The notes under the pieces are model-generated. The model made no database searches. It was not told where the DNA came from and saw nothing but the letters and a program-made list of their open reading frames with translations. Both the position numbers and the translations under genes were made by a program. A stretch of 16,397 nt of DNA, taken from a virus. Its lineage: Duplodnaviria; Heunggongvirae; Uroviricota; Caudoviricetes. This document shows, piece by piece, positions 3,694 to 12,354 of the stretch. How positions within the stretch are numbered: the stretch's first letter is position 1; each line of letters starts with the position of its first letter. The DNA lies in the IMG/VR virus record IMGVR_UViG_2778261693_000004, positions 1 through 16,397 of that record; one strand, written 5' to 3'.

Positions 3694-3764
3694 CTATTTG
3701 ACCTGATAAGGTATTGAACTGTATGGATTTACAGGTAAATTGATCATGTTCAATAACCCTTAAG

Positions 3765-5383: not shown

Positions 5384-6529
5384 TTATTCAGCCGCCACCG
5401 GTTTTAACAAGCCAGCATCGAGCAGTTTACGCGTCAACCACTGTTGTCCTTTCCCCGTTAATTGGGGCGTCAGCCGTATCTGGTAGCCATCTTCATCATC
5501 CAGCACCACTTCTTTCACTGTGAAATATCCGGCGTTTATGTACTGCTGGAACGGCACATTTTTACGCCCGCCGGACGCTATCAGAATGCCGTTCTCCCGT
5601 AACCAGGCAAACAGCGCGTTTTGCTTCAGCCCAACAACCTTTGCAAAATTACCAATCAGGATCCCCTTAGCCACTGATACACGGTCGGCAAAATCGACCT
5701 TGGGGGCTGCGGCCACCAGTTGTTGATTTAGCTGGTGGGCCTTCTGTTCCAGTAGCTGCTTTTGTTCAGCCAGCTCGGCAGCCAGGCGCAAGGCTTCAGG
5801 TAGTGTTTGGGGGATTGCGACCGGTTGCTGTTCTTTTTGCCGGAAGTAGCTGTCTTCCAGTTTTTCAAAGAATGCCCATGCTTCATCTGTGTTTACGATC
5901 TTAGACATGCGTGCCGCTCCGCGTTCGGCCCAAAGAATTACCTGGCTTGTATATTTGCTAACCAGGTGACTAGTAGTCACCAGCCTTTTAAATTCCTTTA
6001 ATTTTTAACCAGTTAAGAGATAGTAATGCTTACCTTCTTCAAAGCGATCGGAGTTGCGAGACAAATTTTTACGAATATTAGCTTCATCGGTTCCATACCC
6101 CTTAGCAAGAGTTTCGGTCGTTACTACACGCACTCCCAGCCATTCCAGAACGGGAATTTCATCAGACTGATTCTGAACAACCACCAGCTCTGATTCCTGA
6201 ACTGAAGTTGCATGAATTTTTTCTGATTTAACGTTAGTTGCTTTCATTCTGTGTGCCTCCTTGCGTGCTTCGGCTGCGACGGTTGCGTAATTCAGATGAC
6301 CCTGTTCGAGCAGGTATTCACGGATATCGGTCACAGCGATAGCCTTTAAGCGCAGATAAACATCGCGCTTATCGACATCCAGATGCGGGTATTCCTTTTC
6401 AAGAATTGCTGCGAGTTCTTTCGCTGATAGAAGAGATTTAGTGCGGATCATGTAATCCGCAATCTCGTACGATGTTATTCGTGAGTGATTTATTTCCATG
6501 AAGTGGCGTCCCTGCCAGTTAAGTAACAT
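5384..6529 (-). pseudogene. Antirepressor-like gene (ORF6N/Rha-type N-terminal domain plus KilA-C/ANT C-terminal domain) split by an in-frame TAA at 6005-6007
   Basis: ORFs 6005-6529 and 5384-5980 are in the same frame. The upstream ORF stops mid-domain (…SDRFEEGKHYYLLTG*) and the domain continues after the stop (KLKEFKRLVTTSHLV…TDEAWAFFEKLEDSYF). The downstream part carries a KilA-C-like motif (GNFAKVVGLKQNALFAWLRENGIL…PFQQYINAGYF) and begins only at a GTG. Confidence 0.6.
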
Positions 6530-6599
6530 CCTGTCACCTACTGATTAGCCCATGTCAACTAATCAACGTCGAATATAATACCATCGATTAAAGAAATAG

Positions 6600-6616
6600 C
6601 AATACATTAGAGCAAT
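6600..6616 (-). promoter_or_regulatory. C1 operator-like site upstream of the antirepressor-like gene
   Basis: caatacATTAGAGCAAT, 14/17 to the reverse-complement consensus, 71 bp upstream of the ATG at 6529. Confidence 0.55.
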
Positions 6617-6617
6617 T

Positions 6618-7664
6618 TTATCTAACGCTCGACGAATGACTTGTGATAGCGCCGACTCCAAGCGCGTAATCAAAGAACAATCGTTGATGCATCGCCAGCC
6701 TACCGTGCGTCTTCTCCCAATTATCGCGGTCACGCTCAATATCACGCTGGCATGACTGGCACAGAGGAATAGCATAAATGTCATGCGCGCATAATCGACT
6801 ATAACGAACGATATAAGGCGTAATGTGAGCGCCAGCTCCCGCCGCTCCACACCCACAGCATGGACGGGAAGCAACAAAGTCCATGTACTCAGGTAATTTT
6901 AGCGATTGCAGTTTTGGTATTTTGAAATGCGCCATACCTGGGTCGGAGTCAACATCCACAGGGCATACTTTTGCACGCATCGGCGCGGCGCGTTCTTCCA
7001 TCATCTGAACATATGCTGTAGCGCGATCGTCATACGGGCGAATATCCGCCTCTTTCAGTGGTCCGCTATCCTGCGGAGTAGCCTTCATCTTATTTATTAT
7101 TGATATGCGGCAGACTTCTTCCGGCATCAGGTGCATCATGTTGCGCATGAAAGCCCACCAGCACAGCTCCTGAATACTTAAATCATGGCTATTTGAAAGG
7201 CCCATTTCCTGACGGGCGACATCCAGTATCCAGTTAACGCGATTATTGTGCAGCGTTTCTTTCAGCTCATTAAAACCACGCATCCGGTAATGGTTATCGT
7301 GATGCCAGCACAACAACACCGCGCTATTGTCTCGTTCAGCGTGGACAATATGGTTGTCACACCAACTACGATCTGCGGCCTGGCATTGACCCTCTTTCCT
7401 ACGCAACCACGCCACCAGCGCGTCAATTCCACCAATACGGCGAAACAGTTCATCGCTGTTAAAAAACGGCTGCAACGCCTCATTTGTTGCCATGGTTTGC
7501 TCGGTAACAACGAGGCCGTCTTCCATGTGCTCGATTAACTCACGCGGCACCGGCTCCATAATAAATTTACGGCCAGCCTCCACCAGCTTTCTGACCTCCT
7601 GATCCACTTTGAACGTGGCGAGGCCAAGCTCTTTCTGTACAAAGGGAGTAATTACGGCTTTCAC
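6618..7664 (-). CDS. Hypothetical 348-aa protein with a C-terminal Cys/His cluster resembling the Ref HNH-like motif
   Basis: GTG start with AAGGTG Shine-Dalgarno 4 nt upstream. C-terminus …[42 protein letters not shown]. At the position I recall for P1 pdcB, but I do not recognise the sequence. Confidence 0.6.
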
Positions 7665-7691
7665 ATCACACCTTTAATCACTGATTGGGCT

Positions 7692-7871
7692 TTATCTGCT
7701 GCCCGACATTATCTGTTTAAGCACAACCATTTCCTGACGGCATAACACAGCAATAGCGGTCCTGGCACCAATTTGCTTACTAACCAGGTATTGCTTTATC
7801 TTGCGGCGACTCACGCCATCAAGAAGCATCTTTAACGCTTCACGGGACAATTTGTTGTATTTGCGTGCCAT
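7692..7871 (-). CDS. Small basic protein (59 aa) immediately downstream of doc
   Basis: ATG at 7869-7871, 4 nt after the doc stop (MARKYNKLSREALKMLLDGVSRRKIKQYL…). At the position I recall for P1 pdcA. Confidence 0.45.
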   Translation of the reverse strand: MARKYNKLSREALKMLLDGVSRRKIKQYLVSKQIGARTAIAVLCRQEMVVLKQIMSGSR

Positions 7872-7875
7872 TAAT

Positions 7876-8256
7876 CTACTCCGCAGAACCATACAATCTA
7901 CGTAACGTGGCGGCGACAGAAGATACAGATATCTCGCCAGTCGCAGCGCCTACAGTAAGGTCTGCCAGTTCAGGTGAATCAAATACCTGCACCCCATTAC
8001 GGCGTAGAAATAGCAGCGCACTGTTTAGCGCGGTACGCTTATTGGCATCATTGAATATATGCCCTCTCGCTGTAGCCACCAGGTAGGTGGCGGAGACTTC
8101 GAAAAGGTCGGTGATCTCTTCGTAGGCAACTCTGGCCTGAACTCTCCCGATAATGGCCTCTGCCCTACCCGGATCTGACATTCCCGGCAGGCCGCCGTAG
8201 CGGTTTATATTCGCATCATGAAGCGCAATAAGTTCTTCCGGTGATATATGCCTCAT
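7876..8256 (-). CDS. doc: Doc toxin (Fic-fold kinase) of the phd-doc addiction module
   Basis: 126 aa ([22 protein letters not shown]…[23 protein letters not shown]…), recognised as P1 Doc. Its start overlaps the phd stop. Confidence 0.95.
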
Positions 8257-8477
8257 TATCGGTTAACCAGTTCCTTGTTGGTGGAGTCCAGGGTGTCAAA
8301 CAGGGATGCAAATTCAGCATCCAGCGCCGCTTTTTTGTAGGCTTCGAAAGTAGCCTTGCTGACAATTACTGCTGGCTCACGGCCTCTGCGGGTGATTTCA
8401 ACCTCTTCCCCGGCTTCAACATTGTTGAGCACTTCAGAAAGGTTGCCGCGCGCGGTACGGAAGTTAATGGATTGCAT
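8256..8477 (-). CDS. phd: Phd antitoxin
   Basis: 73 aa from the ATG at 8475-8477 ([49 protein letters not shown]…), recognised as P1 Phd. GAGGTG Shine-Dalgarno. Confidence 0.93.
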
Positions 8478-8484
8478 AAACACC

Positions 8485-8510
8485 TCGTGTACTCGTTATG
8501 TGTACACAAT
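8485..8510. promoter_or_regulatory. Phd/Doc autoregulatory operator with palindromic GTGTACAC sites
   Basis: Perfect palindrome GTGTACAC at 8501-8508 and a one-mismatch copy at 8487-8494, between a -10-like TATAAT on the minus strand and the phd Shine-Dalgarno. Confidence 0.55.
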
Positions 8511-8549
8511 TATAAACTTCACAGGCATAAAGCACCAGCACTTTGCAGC

Positions 8550-8939
8550 TTAAATCACCGGACAATCATCAAATTCCCCACTTCGGGCATCATTAATGAC
8601 ATGAGTGATCACACCAAACACAGCATTACTCCCCGTGCATCCATCGTCATCCACTGGTAACGCCTCTTTCTTCCCGGTGCTTAAATCCTCCAGGTGCTGG
8701 CGCGGATACTTTCGGTATCTCTTTATGCGATATTCACCCTCCATAGCGCACACAAGCAGCGAACCATCAACTGGAGTAAGCGAAGAATCAACCACCAGCA
8801 AAGCACCCTGCAATATTCCCTCACGGTGATGGCTATCAGCTGCCCGCATGAAGTAGGTTGCTGATGGATGTCTAATTATCTGCTGATCAAGAGAAATTCG
8901 GCTTTCAACATAATCCGCCGCAGGAGAAGGGAAACCCAT
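8550..8939 (-). CDS. humD: HumD, UmuD'-like SOS mutagenesis protein
   Basis: 129 aa starting [30 protein letters not shown]…, which aligns with the processed form of E. coli UmuD ([30 protein letters not shown]…); C-terminal [12 protein letters not shown] matches FGVVIHVVKAMR. Confidence 0.9.
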   Translation of the reverse strand: [129 protein letters not shown]

Positions 8940-8958
8940 AGCGTTTTACCTCAAAAAT

Positions 8959-8974
8959 ACTGTTTATCTATACA
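8959..8974. promoter_or_regulatory. LexA box (CTGT-N8-ACAG) in the humD promoter
   Basis: taCTGTttatctatACAGca, about 20 bp upstream of the humD Shine-Dalgarno and ATG, overlapping a plausible TTGCAC/TAATGT promoter on the minus strand. Confidence 0.65.
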
Positions 8975-9113
8975 GCATACATTAAAGAAGCACCTTTGGT
9001 GCAAACGCGTTATGTACATCAACCACCGCTGATGATTTTTGTGCGCTTTGCTACTATTCATCACCGCGGGATCAGCGTAACCTCGTTGCCAATCAGTTAA
9101 TAAGGAATTAGCT

Positions 9114-9698
9114 ATGCCTAATCGCATTCCTCTCGATCCTGTATTGCCCAAAAATTTTGACTGCACTCCTAACGAGAAACGCTCTAAAGCTCAGCTGGAC
9201 GCCTAGTGGGACCATCCATATGGGGTTACACAACCTGACGGGAAAATTGTAGTTTATTGTCTGAATGGTGGGGCGTGGGACCGTCCATCCATGCTTTGTT
9301 TGGCAGATAACTATGATGAAGCCTGTGAACTTGCCGAAAGACAGCAGGCAAGCTGGGTAAAAACACGGTCTGAACCGACATTCATGTTTTCAAAAGAACC
9401 GCCATTTATACTGGCGAGGATGCCGCAGCGACCGGATCATCAACAAGAAATTGTTGCTGAATTTTCCTCAAGGGATGAGATGAATCTCTTCTCATTAAAG
9501 CAGGAAGAAAGGGATCGCGTCGAAGTGTCTCCAACTCTCGACCACAACCGGATGAACCTGGCCCAGCTCGCCTGGTACAGCAAAGAATTAGAGATGTCTA
9601 TTGCCCGGCTTGAAAACGAAAAAGCCGCTATCCAAGTCCAGCACGAAGTAGTTCTGAACCGGATTAGAGAAATGCAAAACGATAACAGGGGATTTTGA
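9114..9698 (+). CDS. Hypothetical protein; reading frame from a well-positioned ATG is interrupted by an in-frame TAG at 9204-9206 (uninterrupted ORF starts at 9291)
   Basis: AAGGAA Shine-Dalgarno 8 nt before the ATG at 9114. Frame is open for 30 codons, then TAG, then continuously to 9698. The ATGs at 9291 and 9314 have no Shine-Dalgarno. The stop abuts the next gene's ATG. Confidence 0.45.
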
Positions 9699-10055
9699 AT
9701 GGCTAAAATCGAGTACCATCGCGATCGCGGTAATTACCTGGAAATATACGATCATGAATCTCTTAACGATATCAACGATGCGTTATATGAATACTGTGAA
9801 AAAACGAGCATCACAGATGCACCTGATGCATTTGTCGAGCTGCCGGTATATCTCCGCGACATCTATGCAATACGAACACCGCCCGTATCGGTGATTCACA
9901 TTGGCTATGTCCGCCTGTCCATCGAAGAAGATGAAGATCGTTATATCGTGCGCCACTATACATTGGACAGAAAAGAACTTCCTAATGAATGGAACATGAG
10001 TAATTTCTACAACGGTGAATATGGCTTAAAATCCGCTAATAATTTACGGTCATAA
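9699..10055 (+). CDS. Hypothetical 118-aa protein, translationally coupled to the upstream gene
   Basis: ATG at 9699 directly follows TGA at 9696-9698. AGGGGA Shine-Dalgarno. Sequence not recognised. Confidence 0.55.
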   Translation: MAKIEYHRDRGNYLEIYDHESLNDINDALYEYCEKTSITDAPDAFVELPVYLRDIYAIRTPPVSVIHIGYVRLSIEEDEDRYIVRHYTLDRKELPNEWNMSNFYNGEYGLKSANNLRS

Positions 10056-10900
10056 TCTATACAGGCATGTATAACAACAACGAGCCTATTAGCTGTCAAC
10101 AACGTTATTTCCTCAAATAAGAAAAAGCAGAAAACAAATTGTTTAAGGTCACAAATTGTGGCCTTGATGGAGGAGGGAGGCTTATTGGCTATGGCTAAAA
10201 ATCAAATTAGACACTTCATGTTGCTGTAGCTCATCAAGATCCGAGGCCACAAAACCTTTTCCGAAAAACTTCACAAGTAACTCACTAGCCGCATCATTGT
10301 CACCTATTACACGAAAGTCATACGGCAACGTCGCAAGTTGACGATGTAATCCTGCTGAGAAAGTCGAATCTAACAGCGCCCAGAATTCCCACCGCAGGAT
10401 AATACTCGCCTCTTAATACTGTATATATGTTGTTACGATATGTTTTTCTGTCTCTAAAAAAAGATGTTTGAAGGGGATAAAAATATACAATTCCAACAAA
10501 CGTTATTTTTAACAATTTTTTTCTTTGCGTTGACTTTCCCGGACACCTTGTCTGACCTAAGGTGCGCGAAAGCCACTTTTTCCTTCCTGAGTTATCCACA
10601 AAGTTATGCACTTGCAAGAGGGCCATTTTCTACATATTGTGGTGGCTAACAGATGAAATGAATGTAGATTAATTGAAGATAAGGAGAAAATTTGAGATGC
10701 AATCATGACGTTAATAGATAGGGTCTGCATTACAGACCCCACCCGCATCAAGGAATTAGCCGTTCCCTGATGTTTTTCCGAAAACATGTGCCGTAAGCTC
10801 ACGTTAACGACTTTCATTCACCGAATCCAACTATATAGGGGTTGGGTTTCTACGTCAACGTGAGCAAGTGCACCTTTACATTTGACAAGGAACCACCTGA

Positions 10901-11038
10901 ATGAACGCTTTTTTTCAGTTCCTGAGTGCATTTTTAGATGCGCCTATTATTAGCCAGATTCTGGCTATTATCCTCATCATCGTTTTGATTTTGCTTTTAA
11001 GGTCAGTAAAAAATGGAATTATGCACTGGCTTACTTAA
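10901..11038 (+). CDS. Small hydrophobic peptide (45 aa), single predicted transmembrane helix
   Basis: MNAFFQFLSAFLDAPIISQILAIILIIVLILLLRSVKNGIMHWLT with AAGGAA 8 nt upstream. Sits in an otherwise ORF-poor AT-rich region. Confidence 0.3.
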   Translation: MNAFFQFLSAFLDAPIISQILAIILIIVLILLLRSVKNGIMHWLT

Positions 11039-11113
11039 TGTTTCAGTGAAACATTAAAATCTCCTTGATGTGGAAACAATCATTTTCTGTATGTGCTGGT
11101 GGGCACCTGTAGT

Positions 11114-11476
11114 TCAGCTTTCGTTGGCATTTAACTTCGTCTTTGCTTTCTCCACCAGCAACTTCCAGATGCCTATTTCATTAGCAGCCGCCTTGATGGC
11201 GGCATAAAAAGCATCTTGCTGATCGTAACGCTGGATCTGTTTTTTCAGTTTTGCCTCCACCAATTTAATTTCATTACGTGCTTTCTGAAGCCGCATCACC
11301 GCCCGGTTACGTCTGTTCTTGTATAGCGTGTTAATCTCTGACAATTGCTTTAATTTACCAGCCTGACTGCGGATTATCGCCTCCCTGGCTTCTGCCGTGC
11401 GTCTCATCTGATCTCTTAAGAGTTCACCGTTTTCGATAATTCTTTCAAGGTGTTTGATGTGATCTGCAACTCTCAT
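11114..11476 (-). CDS. Hypothetical 120-aa basic, probably coiled-coil protein; last gene of a five- or six-gene minus-strand operon
   Basis: Start overlaps the stop of the upstream 293-aa gene. Lys/Arg/Glu-rich heptad-like sequence. Confidence 0.6.
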   Translation of the reverse strand: MRVADHIKHLERIIENGELLRDQMRRTAEAREAIIRSQAGKLKQLSEINTLYKNRRNRAVMRLQKARNEIKLVEAKLKKQIQRYDQQDAFYAAIKAAANEIGIWKLLVEKAKTKLNANES

Positions 11477-12354
11477 ACTTCACCCTCGCTTGTATCACCA
11501 GCGTCCACCAACGACAATAAAGCCCTGGCCATCTTATGAACCAACAGTGCATCAATAATGCCAAGCGTATGCCCCGGCTTAATGTTTAATGCTGCCTCAA
11601 GATGACACCTTTCCAGACCGCTTTTCTCGGCTTGTTTATGATGATATGGCGTAATAACGTCGCCCAAAACACGGCTAATTCTTTCTCGTAATTGCTGGGT
11701 GCCAGCACACTTGATCGCTGTATCGTGGAGACGGTTAACCAGTTCGCGATAAACATGCGGCTTAATGCGGATACGTTCACCGGTGACGCCCTTTCCTGGC
11801 GTAGGCACCGAACTATCCGGAATATCCGGATAGTTGCCAGCCAGTCTACGCAAAACAGCCTTAATTGCATCAATACGGTCATCATCAACTTTTTCTACAA
11901 TATTGGAATTTAAATACTTCGAAGCCTTGCTATGCCAATCGCTGGTTTTAGGGTCTTGTCCATCCATCAAACGCCAAGCTTCAGCGATTAACTCATAGCC
12001 AGTAACAGTGGCTTCCTGCGCATCACCAATCAGTTGTGTGATCTCTCTTTCAAGCATGCTTAGAGCGTTAGGCATTGGTTTTTCTTCCGGTACTACTGGA
12101 ACGGGGGGAGCGGCGTAGACCTCAATAATTCCATTATCAATAGGCCATTCTCCATCCTTGAGGTAGTCACTTGTGCCGTCAACTTGCTGTTCTGCAATGT
12201 GGAATGCACCTATTGGTTTTGCTTCCAGTGATGCCAGAGCAATTCGTGCCAGTTCTTCCGCTTCTTCTGCTGGCAGTACAACGTTGCTACCAGGTCCGTA
12301 TGTTTCGCGCCACTGCTTGATTGTCAGTAGTCGCTCTTTGGTAATAGTGGTCAT
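11473..12354 (-). CDS. Hypothetical 293-aa protein
   Basis: Long ORF overlapping both neighbours by 4 nt (operon coupling). Sequence not recognised. Confidence 0.65.
   Translation of the reverse strand: MTTITKERLLTIKQWRETYGPGSNVVLPAEEAEELARIALASLEAKPIGAFHIAEQQVDGTSDYLKDGEWPIDNGIIEVYAAPPVPVVPEEKPMPNALSMLEREITQLIGDAQEATVTGYELIAEAWRLMDGQDPKTSDWHSKASKYLNSNIVEKVDDDRIDAIKAVLRRLAGNYPDIPDSSVPTPGKGVTGERIRIKPHVYRELVNRLHDTAIKCAGTQQLRERISRVLGDVITPYHHKQAEKSGLERCHLEAALNIKPGHTLGIIDALLVHKMARALLSLVDAGDTSEGEV

Follow-up and report, generated by a model that had tools for sequence, protein, structure and literature searches.

Variable region 8, one of the eight known hyper-variable regions of P1-like phage-plasmids (PMC9603915), is where the locus described here lies. 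At the same position of the genome map, P1 carries the hot locus (upfO-LPhot-hot), which converges on lxr. Intact relatives of the two parts of our locus are found in other elements: a LexA-controlled humD gene in the SSU5-like SP15_P2 and the P1-like plasmid NZ_CP149562.1, and a 174-aa Toprim-domain gene in p28Eco12 (NZ_CP038506.1), an IncY P1-like plasmid. The window, i.e. the whole stretch of DNA analyzed (16,397 nt), was 98.3% identical to P7, Salmonella phage SJ46 and MH422554 across the region, identifying it as a P7-type P1-like element.

The minus-strand frame and its LexA half-site

At the site, the minus strand reads ...CATATATACAGTATTAAGAGGCGAGTATTATCCTGCGGTGGGAATTCTGGGCGCTG..., in which AAGAGG (10414-10409) is followed by the 5 nt CGAGT and then by ATT (10403-10401). 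From this ATT, 73 codons (IILRWEFWALLDSTFSAGLHRQLATLPYDFRVIGDNDAASELLVKFFGKGFVASDLDELQQHEVSNLIFSHSQ) are free of stops up to a TAA at 10184-10182. Direct reading thus confirmed all the elements on which the original prediction of a small gene with a damaged start codon had been built. AAGAGG is overlapped by an in-frame stop, TAA at 10415-10413, and the frame therefore opens just 4 codons ahead of ATT. No canonical start precedes TTG at 10328, which gives the 48-aa ORF at 10182..10328 in the ORF list. With 120 listed ORFs of at least 40 aa in the 16.4 kb, an open stretch of 73 codons is unremarkable by itself. We attribute its openness, together with the presence of a Shine-Dalgarno sequence and a LexA half-site, to descent from two real genes and not to chance.

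The LexA half-site ATATACAGTA is located at 10426-10417 (minus strand), and CTGT is absent eight bases upstream. A pattern search for CTGT-N8-ACAG in the whole window detected only 8960-8975 and 3719-3734, and no complete box at 10417-10426. The complete LexA-type box at 3719-3734, CTGTATGGATTTACAG, is intergenic and lies between 73-aa and 343-aa ORFs on the minus strand and 69-aa and 283-aa ORFs on the plus strand, sizes that would match P1 cra/cre and coi/c1.

The original prediction had suggested a small LexA-regulon protein to be compared with P1 Lxr. A BLASTP comparison with Lxr gave E = 33 and no meaningful alignment, and the lxr homologue of the window is a separate gene at 9114-9698. 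This lxr-like gene (plus strand), a homologue of P7 upf94.2, has a premature stop in place of the Trp of P7 at codon 31 (9204-9206). Judging from the reading frame, this element thus appears to have lost a working copy of the LexA-regulated lxr homologue.

The Toprim-derived part and its substitutions

The frame belongs to the 3' third of a 174-aa Toprim-domain gene that was never tied to the AAGAGG ribosome-binding site, and it is not a small gene of the LexA regulon. In BLASTP, window residues 8-73 matched residues 109-174 of WP_000159954.1, annotated in p28Eco12 as a 174-aa "toprim domain-containing protein" (58/66 identical, E 4e-40). Window positions 6332-10393 are colinear with p28Eco12 at 97.8% identity; the blastn alignment ends at 10393, and the homology stops in the middle of this gene. 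The gene is intact in p28Eco12 and occupies the same locus as the window frame, converging on the upf93.6/lxr pair. PhiR41_1 and CMS-2020a matched only window 10101/10129-10393 (~90%), and the matched stretch in PhiR41_1 is the 3' end of an annotated 174-aa ORF. Based on BLASTP, tblastn, colinearity and PHROG matches, we assigned 10185..10382 (minus strand) as the remnant of a Toprim (primase-like) gene, codons 109-174, ending at the original stop TAA (10182..10184), which is the same stop in PhiR41_1, CMS-2020a and P7-type copies. The junction-proximal bases at 10383..10393 (GGTGGGAATTC, compared with GGCGGCAATTCG in the intact gene) are also Toprim-derived, and according to the alignments they differ from that gene by two substitutions and by the loss of 1 nt, which puts the ancestral frame out of phase. 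A tblastn search of the whole window matched only residues 109-174, with no trace of residues 1-108. At the locus with the intact Toprim gene, the ATG sits 324 nt further upstream and not at the position of ATT.

The remnant matched phrog_17952 and phrog_849, both labelled "DNA primase", and the intact 174-aa protein matched phrog_849 with an E of 9.5e-54. Along its entire length, the intact protein shares 49% identity with a 171-aa Kagunavirus "DNA primase". It had no Pfam, NCBIfam or PDB sequence match, and neither it nor the 76-aa translation of the frame had a match in Pfam, NCBIfam or PADLOC. The family was identified only by PHROGs and by Pfam on the 49%-identical Kagunavirus homologue, whose Toprim_2 match (23.1 bits, with a gathering cut-off of 22.1) spans the break and is the basis of the Toprim identity of the family. 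Specifically, the remnant keeps the DxD motif GDNDAA (D136/D138 of GDNDAAG), with the conserved G141 replaced by S, and the glutamate motif ITES (E93) is upstream of the breakpoint and missing from the alignment row of the window. Small stand-alone Toprim/primase-like proteins have a full length of about 170-175 aa including an N-terminal half, which the remnant lacks.

Pieces of this family are also seen elsewhere. phrog_17952 (68 positions, "DNA primase") covers the C-terminal piece alone and phrog_14043 (92 positions) the N-terminal part alone, indicating that split or truncated versions of the Toprim gene are annotated as genes in some phage genomes. Likewise, the Toprim match comes in two pieces in Klebsiella jumbo phages. 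In Kagunavirus vB_EcoS_XY1 (L011 56-1992), the 171-aa Toprim gene lies directly downstream of a 474-aa SNF2-type helicase gene with a 4-nt overlap, which by analogy hints that an SNF2-type helicase may be a partner of the intact plasmid Toprim protein.

Purifying selection, expected of a Toprim coding sequence, was found in the intact copies and not in the lineage of the remnant. The dN/dS values of diverged pairs of intact copies were 0.03-0.06, and the Toprim genes of p28Eco12 and PhiR41_1 differ by 27 synonymous and 3 non-synonymous changes. At 11 sites, four intact copies agree and the window differs, with 7 non-synonymous and 4 synonymous changes. The ratio of non-synonymous to synonymous changes thus differs between the remnant (7:4) and the intact genes (3:27; Fisher p 0.0013), and neutrality fits the remnant (binomial p 0.28). 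Three of the replacements, G113D, R121H and G141S, affect residues conserved in the 49%-identical Kagunavirus protein. Within the P7-type lineage, A110V, A110S, D130V and H172Y (non-synonymous) and V133V (synonymous) were found.

Several copies of the remnant are further disrupted. IS903 is annotated at P7 L001 3620-4676, splitting the remnant; in blastn, window 6699-10318 corresponded to L001 3-3619 and window 10310-11842 to L001 4677-6226. The nine bases at 10310..10318 lie on both sides of IS903 in P7 and are a candidate target-site duplication. P7 is a named phage with a complete deposited genome despite this insertion. Additionally, a 1-nt frameshift breaks the remnant in pQ502, and a sub-lineage of several copies has AAGAGG changed to AAGCGG in the Shine-Dalgarno sequence and ACAGTA changed to ACAGTG in the half-site. 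Of 32 further copies with the same junction, 30 keep the frame open, but the copies are so nearly identical that this count carries little weight in either direction. P7, SJ46 and the listed P7-type RefSeq/PLSDB records all lack an annotated feature at the remnant. A hairpin after the remnant (AAGGCCACA-ATT-TGTGACCTT) was considered as a terminator and rejected, being no better than shuffled sequence (z -0.71) and unflagged by the scan.

The humD-derived part and the junction

The sequence upstream of the remnant is derived from humD. Window 10399-10616 aligned to the region directly upstream of annotated HumD genes in SP15_P2 and NZ_CP149562.1. The humD 5' leader is located at 10399..10416 (minus strand) and reads TT-AAGAGG-CGAGTATT-AT, with the Shine-Dalgarno sequence at 10414-10409; these 18 nt are identical to the sequence directly ahead of the annotated HumD/S24 peptidase genes of both relatives, and the leader TTAAGAGGCGAGTATTAT is likewise identical in all three elements. 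In SP15_P2, a promoter-like site, a full LexA box, AAGAGG and CGAGTATT precede the ATG (TTCAAA-17 nt-TATACTGTATGCATATACAGTATTAAGAGGCGAGTATT ATG GGC TTC CCT TCT CCT GCG GCG GAT...), and the gene behind this leader encodes a 129-aa HumD/UmuD'-like protein, for which Pfam Peptidase_S24 was confirmed. The same arrangement of promoter and leader feeds straight into humD-phd-doc in NZ_CP149562.1. AAGAGG was thus borne out as a genuine ribosome-binding site that has lost its start codon.

The ATT at 10403-10401 belongs to the leader, and it is also ATT in the intact relatives (...AAGAGGCGAGTATT ATG GGC...), so it is not an ATG altered by a single C-to-A change as had been proposed. What remains of the humD ATG is the AT at 10400-10399 (minus strand). 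The real ATG aligns with the window codon ATC, which consists of this AT and the C of CCT, and its loss is due to a 13-bp deletion or to the junction itself rather than to a point change. The expectation of an ATG at the equivalent position in orthologous loci did not hold either: nine of nine P7-type copies picked by similarity read ATT ATC CTG, as did all copies examined. Following the leader, 10389..10398 (minus strand) represents the remains of humD codons 6-9 (CCTGCGGTGG compared with CCT GCG GCG G, 9/10 matching), a match with a chance probability of ~3e-5 per offset and ~1e-3 over 40 offsets.

Deletions were called from an alignment of the window, a second P7-type copy and the two intact relatives, which read TACTGTATGCATATACAGTA-TTAAGAGGCGAGTATT-ATG GGC TTC CCT TCT CCT GCG GCG and as intact outgroups polarised the deletions in the decayed humD promoter region (10427..10470, minus strand). 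A 5-bp deletion between 10448 and 10447 lies within the -35 hexamer TTCAAA. An 11-bp deletion between 10427 and 10426 took the left LexA half and the -10 hexamer TATACT, leaving the right half ATATACAGTA at 10417..10426 (minus strand) of a box that reads TACTGTATG(C/T)ATATACAGTA in the intact relatives. The half-site beside the frame is therefore real, as the half of a genuine LexA box. The 13-bp deletion removed the stretch from the G of ATG through humD codon 5. A promoter scan found TTCAAA-17-TATACT in the intact relative and no promoter-like match at the window site. Of the features of a LexA-regulated humD/umuD'-type gene, the locus retains an ATG cut to AT and ~10 nt of coding sequence, and it has neither a full LexA box nor an S24 domain. 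The original prediction is in this way upheld for the ribosome-binding site with its lost start and for the halved LexA box, and falls for the origin of ATT and the identity of the gene.

The three deletions (5, 11 and 13 bp) are common to P7-type copies. A further 17-bp deletion (ATGGTTAGCATTCTATT), between 10469 and 10468 (minus strand) and between CA and AACATC, occurred in the sub-lineage of the window and is common, by identity, to a handful of plasmids, e.g. NZ_CP119403.1 and NZ_CP104510.1; other P7-type copies and both intact humD relatives keep the 17 bp. The working humD gene of the window is located at 8550-8939 with its own LexA box at 8958-8977, and its leader (TTTTTGAGGTAAAACGCT) differs from the fossil leader allele (TTAAGAGGCGAGTATT).

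Upstream of the humD promoter, a conserved block (10471..10616, minus strand) is common to intact-humD elements and P1 (nrdA/ypaB-like). Window matches to P1 run from 10493 leftwards, and those to the intact-humD elements span 10399-10616. The window segment at ~10490-10620 is also ~89% identical to the E. coli chromosomal ypaB/nrdA upstream region, with matches in 5,423 of 5,426 genomes. A DnaA box (TGTGGATAA) is present at 10592-10600, and the P1 record annotates this segment as an nrdA-like promoter with DnaA boxes. An LPhot-like late promoter was also considered, and the -22 box AAGTTACTT of the annotated P1 late promoter was not matched in the conserved AAAATAACGTTTGTTGGAATTGTATAT block. 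In addition, a direct repeat, AAATAACGTT, occurs at 10499-10508 and 10101-10110 (minus strand; 0.04 expected by chance) and extends to AAATAACGTT(T)GTTG. Its two copies flank the fossil promoter and the Toprim remnant, and the repeat may represent a common regulatory box or a landmark of recombination.

The humD-derived sequence extends down to ~10389 and the Toprim-derived sequence up to ~10393. In the overlap (10389-10393), the window reads GGTGG and both parents read GGCGG (humD CCTGC-GGCGG-ATT; Toprim CGCG-GGCGG-CAATTCG). This GGCGG overlap is, on the aligned sequences, a putative microhomology signature of illegitimate crossover. The exact junction is present in at least 78 complete E. 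coli genomes (of 5,426 surveyed), as well as in 92 PLSDB plasmids and 24 IMG/VR contigs.

A reconstructed undeleted junction of 369 nt was used as the query in a survey of the 5,426 complete E. coli genomes. An undeleted fused junction retaining humD codons 1-5 would read CCCTTCTCCTGCGG[CT]GG[CG]AATTC, and translation of the reconstruction (MGFPSPAAAIRGRC*) shows that such a fusion would be out of frame. The survey returned 78 full-coverage records, all in the 80-90% identity band. Among the matches listed, every full-length one spans 340 and not 369 nt, the difference of 29 nt being equal to 5 + 11 + 13. Matches to the right part start at query position 158/164 and are annotated toprim (intact Toprim genes), and matches to the left part end at query position 159/162 and are annotated HumD or S24 peptidase (intact humD). 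No undeleted intermediate, i.e. a fused junction with ATG and a full LexA box, was found in the 5,426 E. coli genomes, IMG/VR or JGI metagenomes. Because of this, fusion followed by deletion is an order that we infer and did not observe.

Origin of the locus and rival readings

The locus is very likely a non-functional chimeric fossil produced by mosaic recombination between phage-plasmids. One parent would have carried [nrdA-like region]-[LexA-controlled promoter]-humD-phd-doc, an arrangement that persists in NZ_CP149562.1 and SSU5-like plasmids, and the other [174-aa Toprim gene], upf93.6 and lxr on the opposite strand, and [LexA box]-humD-phd-doc, as persists in p28Eco12. An illegitimate crossover at GGCGG may have joined codon ~8 of humD in the former to codon ~104-108 of the Toprim gene in the latter, with a homologous crossover elsewhere completing the exchange. 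The recombinant would then have obtained an entire humD from the incoming side, which has another leader allele and is served by a LexA box of its own (8958-8977), and would also have kept the orphan humD promoter, ribosome-binding site and start, out of frame with the last third of the Toprim gene. This orphan SOS promoter would have been aimed at the Toprim stump and, beyond it, antisense into upf93.6/lxr. Subsequently, small deletions presumably disabled the orphan promoter, either by neutral decay or by selection against antisense transcription or LexA titration. The decay itself is evident from the 5-bp (-35), 11-bp (-10 and left LexA half) and 13-bp (G of ATG to codon 5) deletions and the 1-bp deletion at the junction. 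Since these deletions combine to bring the Toprim frame into phase with the bases after the old Shine-Dalgarno sequence, the locus looks like a 73-codon gene starting with ATT. The true humD-side donor is unsampled, because the nearest intact upstream relatives are only ~88% identical to the fossil outside the deletions. We infer that nothing functional is encoded, because the product would be missing the N-terminal 60% of the Toprim protein, its glutamate included, and the promoter hexamers and the start codon are gone.

A rival history would lead to an identical end product. The same fossil might have arisen by intramolecular deletion in an ancestor with a second humD upstream of the Toprim gene on the same strand, with no exchange between elements; the duplicated humD 5' ends (8940-8987 and 10399-10446) do place two humD starts in one molecule. 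However, a same-strand humD-toprim order was not seen in any element: toprim comes before humD in PhiR41_1 and, by DNA match, in CMS-2020a, and in p28Eco12 the opposite-strand genes lxr and upf93.6 stand between toprim and humD. The fossil and resident leaders (TTAAGAGGCGAGTATT and TTTTTGAGGTAAAACGCT) moreover point to two parental alleles, and we consider intramolecular deletion unlikely. A real LexA-regulon gene encoding 73 aa, in which a single plus-strand change of C to A turned ATG into ATT, would account for AAGAGG, the 5-nt spacing, the open frame and a LexA half-site 14 nt upstream, but we give this reading practically no credence: the same ATT precedes the true humD ATG in the elements with the intact gene; the frame encodes the C-terminal third of a 174-aa protein that, where its locus is intact, starts at an ATG 324 nt upstream; the product does not resemble Lxr; and all copies examined have ATT ATC CTG.

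A functional small protein translated from AUU (or AUC/CUG), in which a C-terminal Toprim fragment was recruited after the fusion, is very improbable on the sequence evidence. The E. coli genes infC and pcnB start at AUU, so such starts exist, and AUU with a good Shine-Dalgarno sequence at 5-nt spacing initiates weakly; by analogy, trace translation may occur here. The Shine-Dalgarno sequence is strong in the window and P7, the frame is open in 30 of the 32 further copies, and a 68-position PHROG matches the C-terminal piece alone, such a piece having been called a gene by some annotators. Against this, both promoter hexamers are deleted, the substitutions are neutral-like and unlike those of the intact gene, with the conserved G113, R121 and G141 replaced, and the half with the Toprim glutamate is missing. 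Furthermore, IS903 interrupts the frame in P7, a frameshift does so in pQ502, AAGCGG has replaced the original Shine-Dalgarno sequence in a sub-lineage, and no listed annotation covers the frame in any P7-type record examined. A variant to which we assign even less probability is low-level translation from AUU, AUC or CUG on read-through transcripts from upfM/N/O, yielding a 73-aa DxD half-Toprim peptide with a new role. If this were true, the peptide could interfere with a primase/helicase partner of the host or of rival phages, which would be a de novo recruitment of a recombination scar.

We therefore retain the chimeric fossil as the preferred reading and suggest that the frame be labelled a pseudogene or gene remnant (humD'-'toprim chimera) in annotations, with the half-site not treated as an SOS operator and ATT not proposed as a start codon. 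The locus would provide a base-resolved example of cassette exchange between P1-like and SSU5-like phage-plasmids in the hot/lxr/humD variable region, in which one illegitimate crossover at a 5-nt microhomology was presumably followed by small deletions that have since eroded the orphan SOS promoter. The exact junction sequence is also a handy lineage marker for P7-type elements.

Comparison with known systems

Chimeric pseudogenes and recombination scars are a well-known kind of object, and this particular example appears previously undescribed. Its closest intact counterpart on the Toprim side, the gene of WP_000159954.1 in p28Eco12 (also in CP027590, PhiR41_1 and CMS-2020a), shares the locus, the stop and the downstream sequence, with 88% protein and ~94% DNA identity to codons 109-174 in the window. 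Unlike this gene, the window copy has neither codons 1-108 nor the native start and the region upstream of it, and it shows 7 lineage-specific replacements and the 1-nt deletion at the break. On the humD side, the promoters of SP15_P2 and NZ_CP149562.1 have the same leader (TTAAGAGGCGAGTATTAT), right LexA half-site and upstream block as the window, whereas the window is without the -35, the -10 with the left LexA half, and the stretch from ATG through codon 5.

The likeness to infC and pcnB is limited to a Shine-Dalgarno sequence followed by AUU at a plausible spacing. In those genes, AUU heads a conserved full-length reading frame, whereas the ATT of the window is part of another gene's leader in all intact relatives, and the frame behind it is a fragment of yet another gene. 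Phage P7 (AF503408 / NC_050152) has a junction and deletions identical to those of the window, with the remnant unannotated; unlike the window, it carries IS903 at the equivalent of 10310-10318 and retains the 17 bp. In P1, the upstream upfM/N/O and nrdA-like region is homologous to the window (94% from 10493 leftwards). Beyond this shared region, P1 has hot, a theta-subunit homologue, behind a late promoter, whereas the window has a fossil humD promoter and a Toprim remnant.
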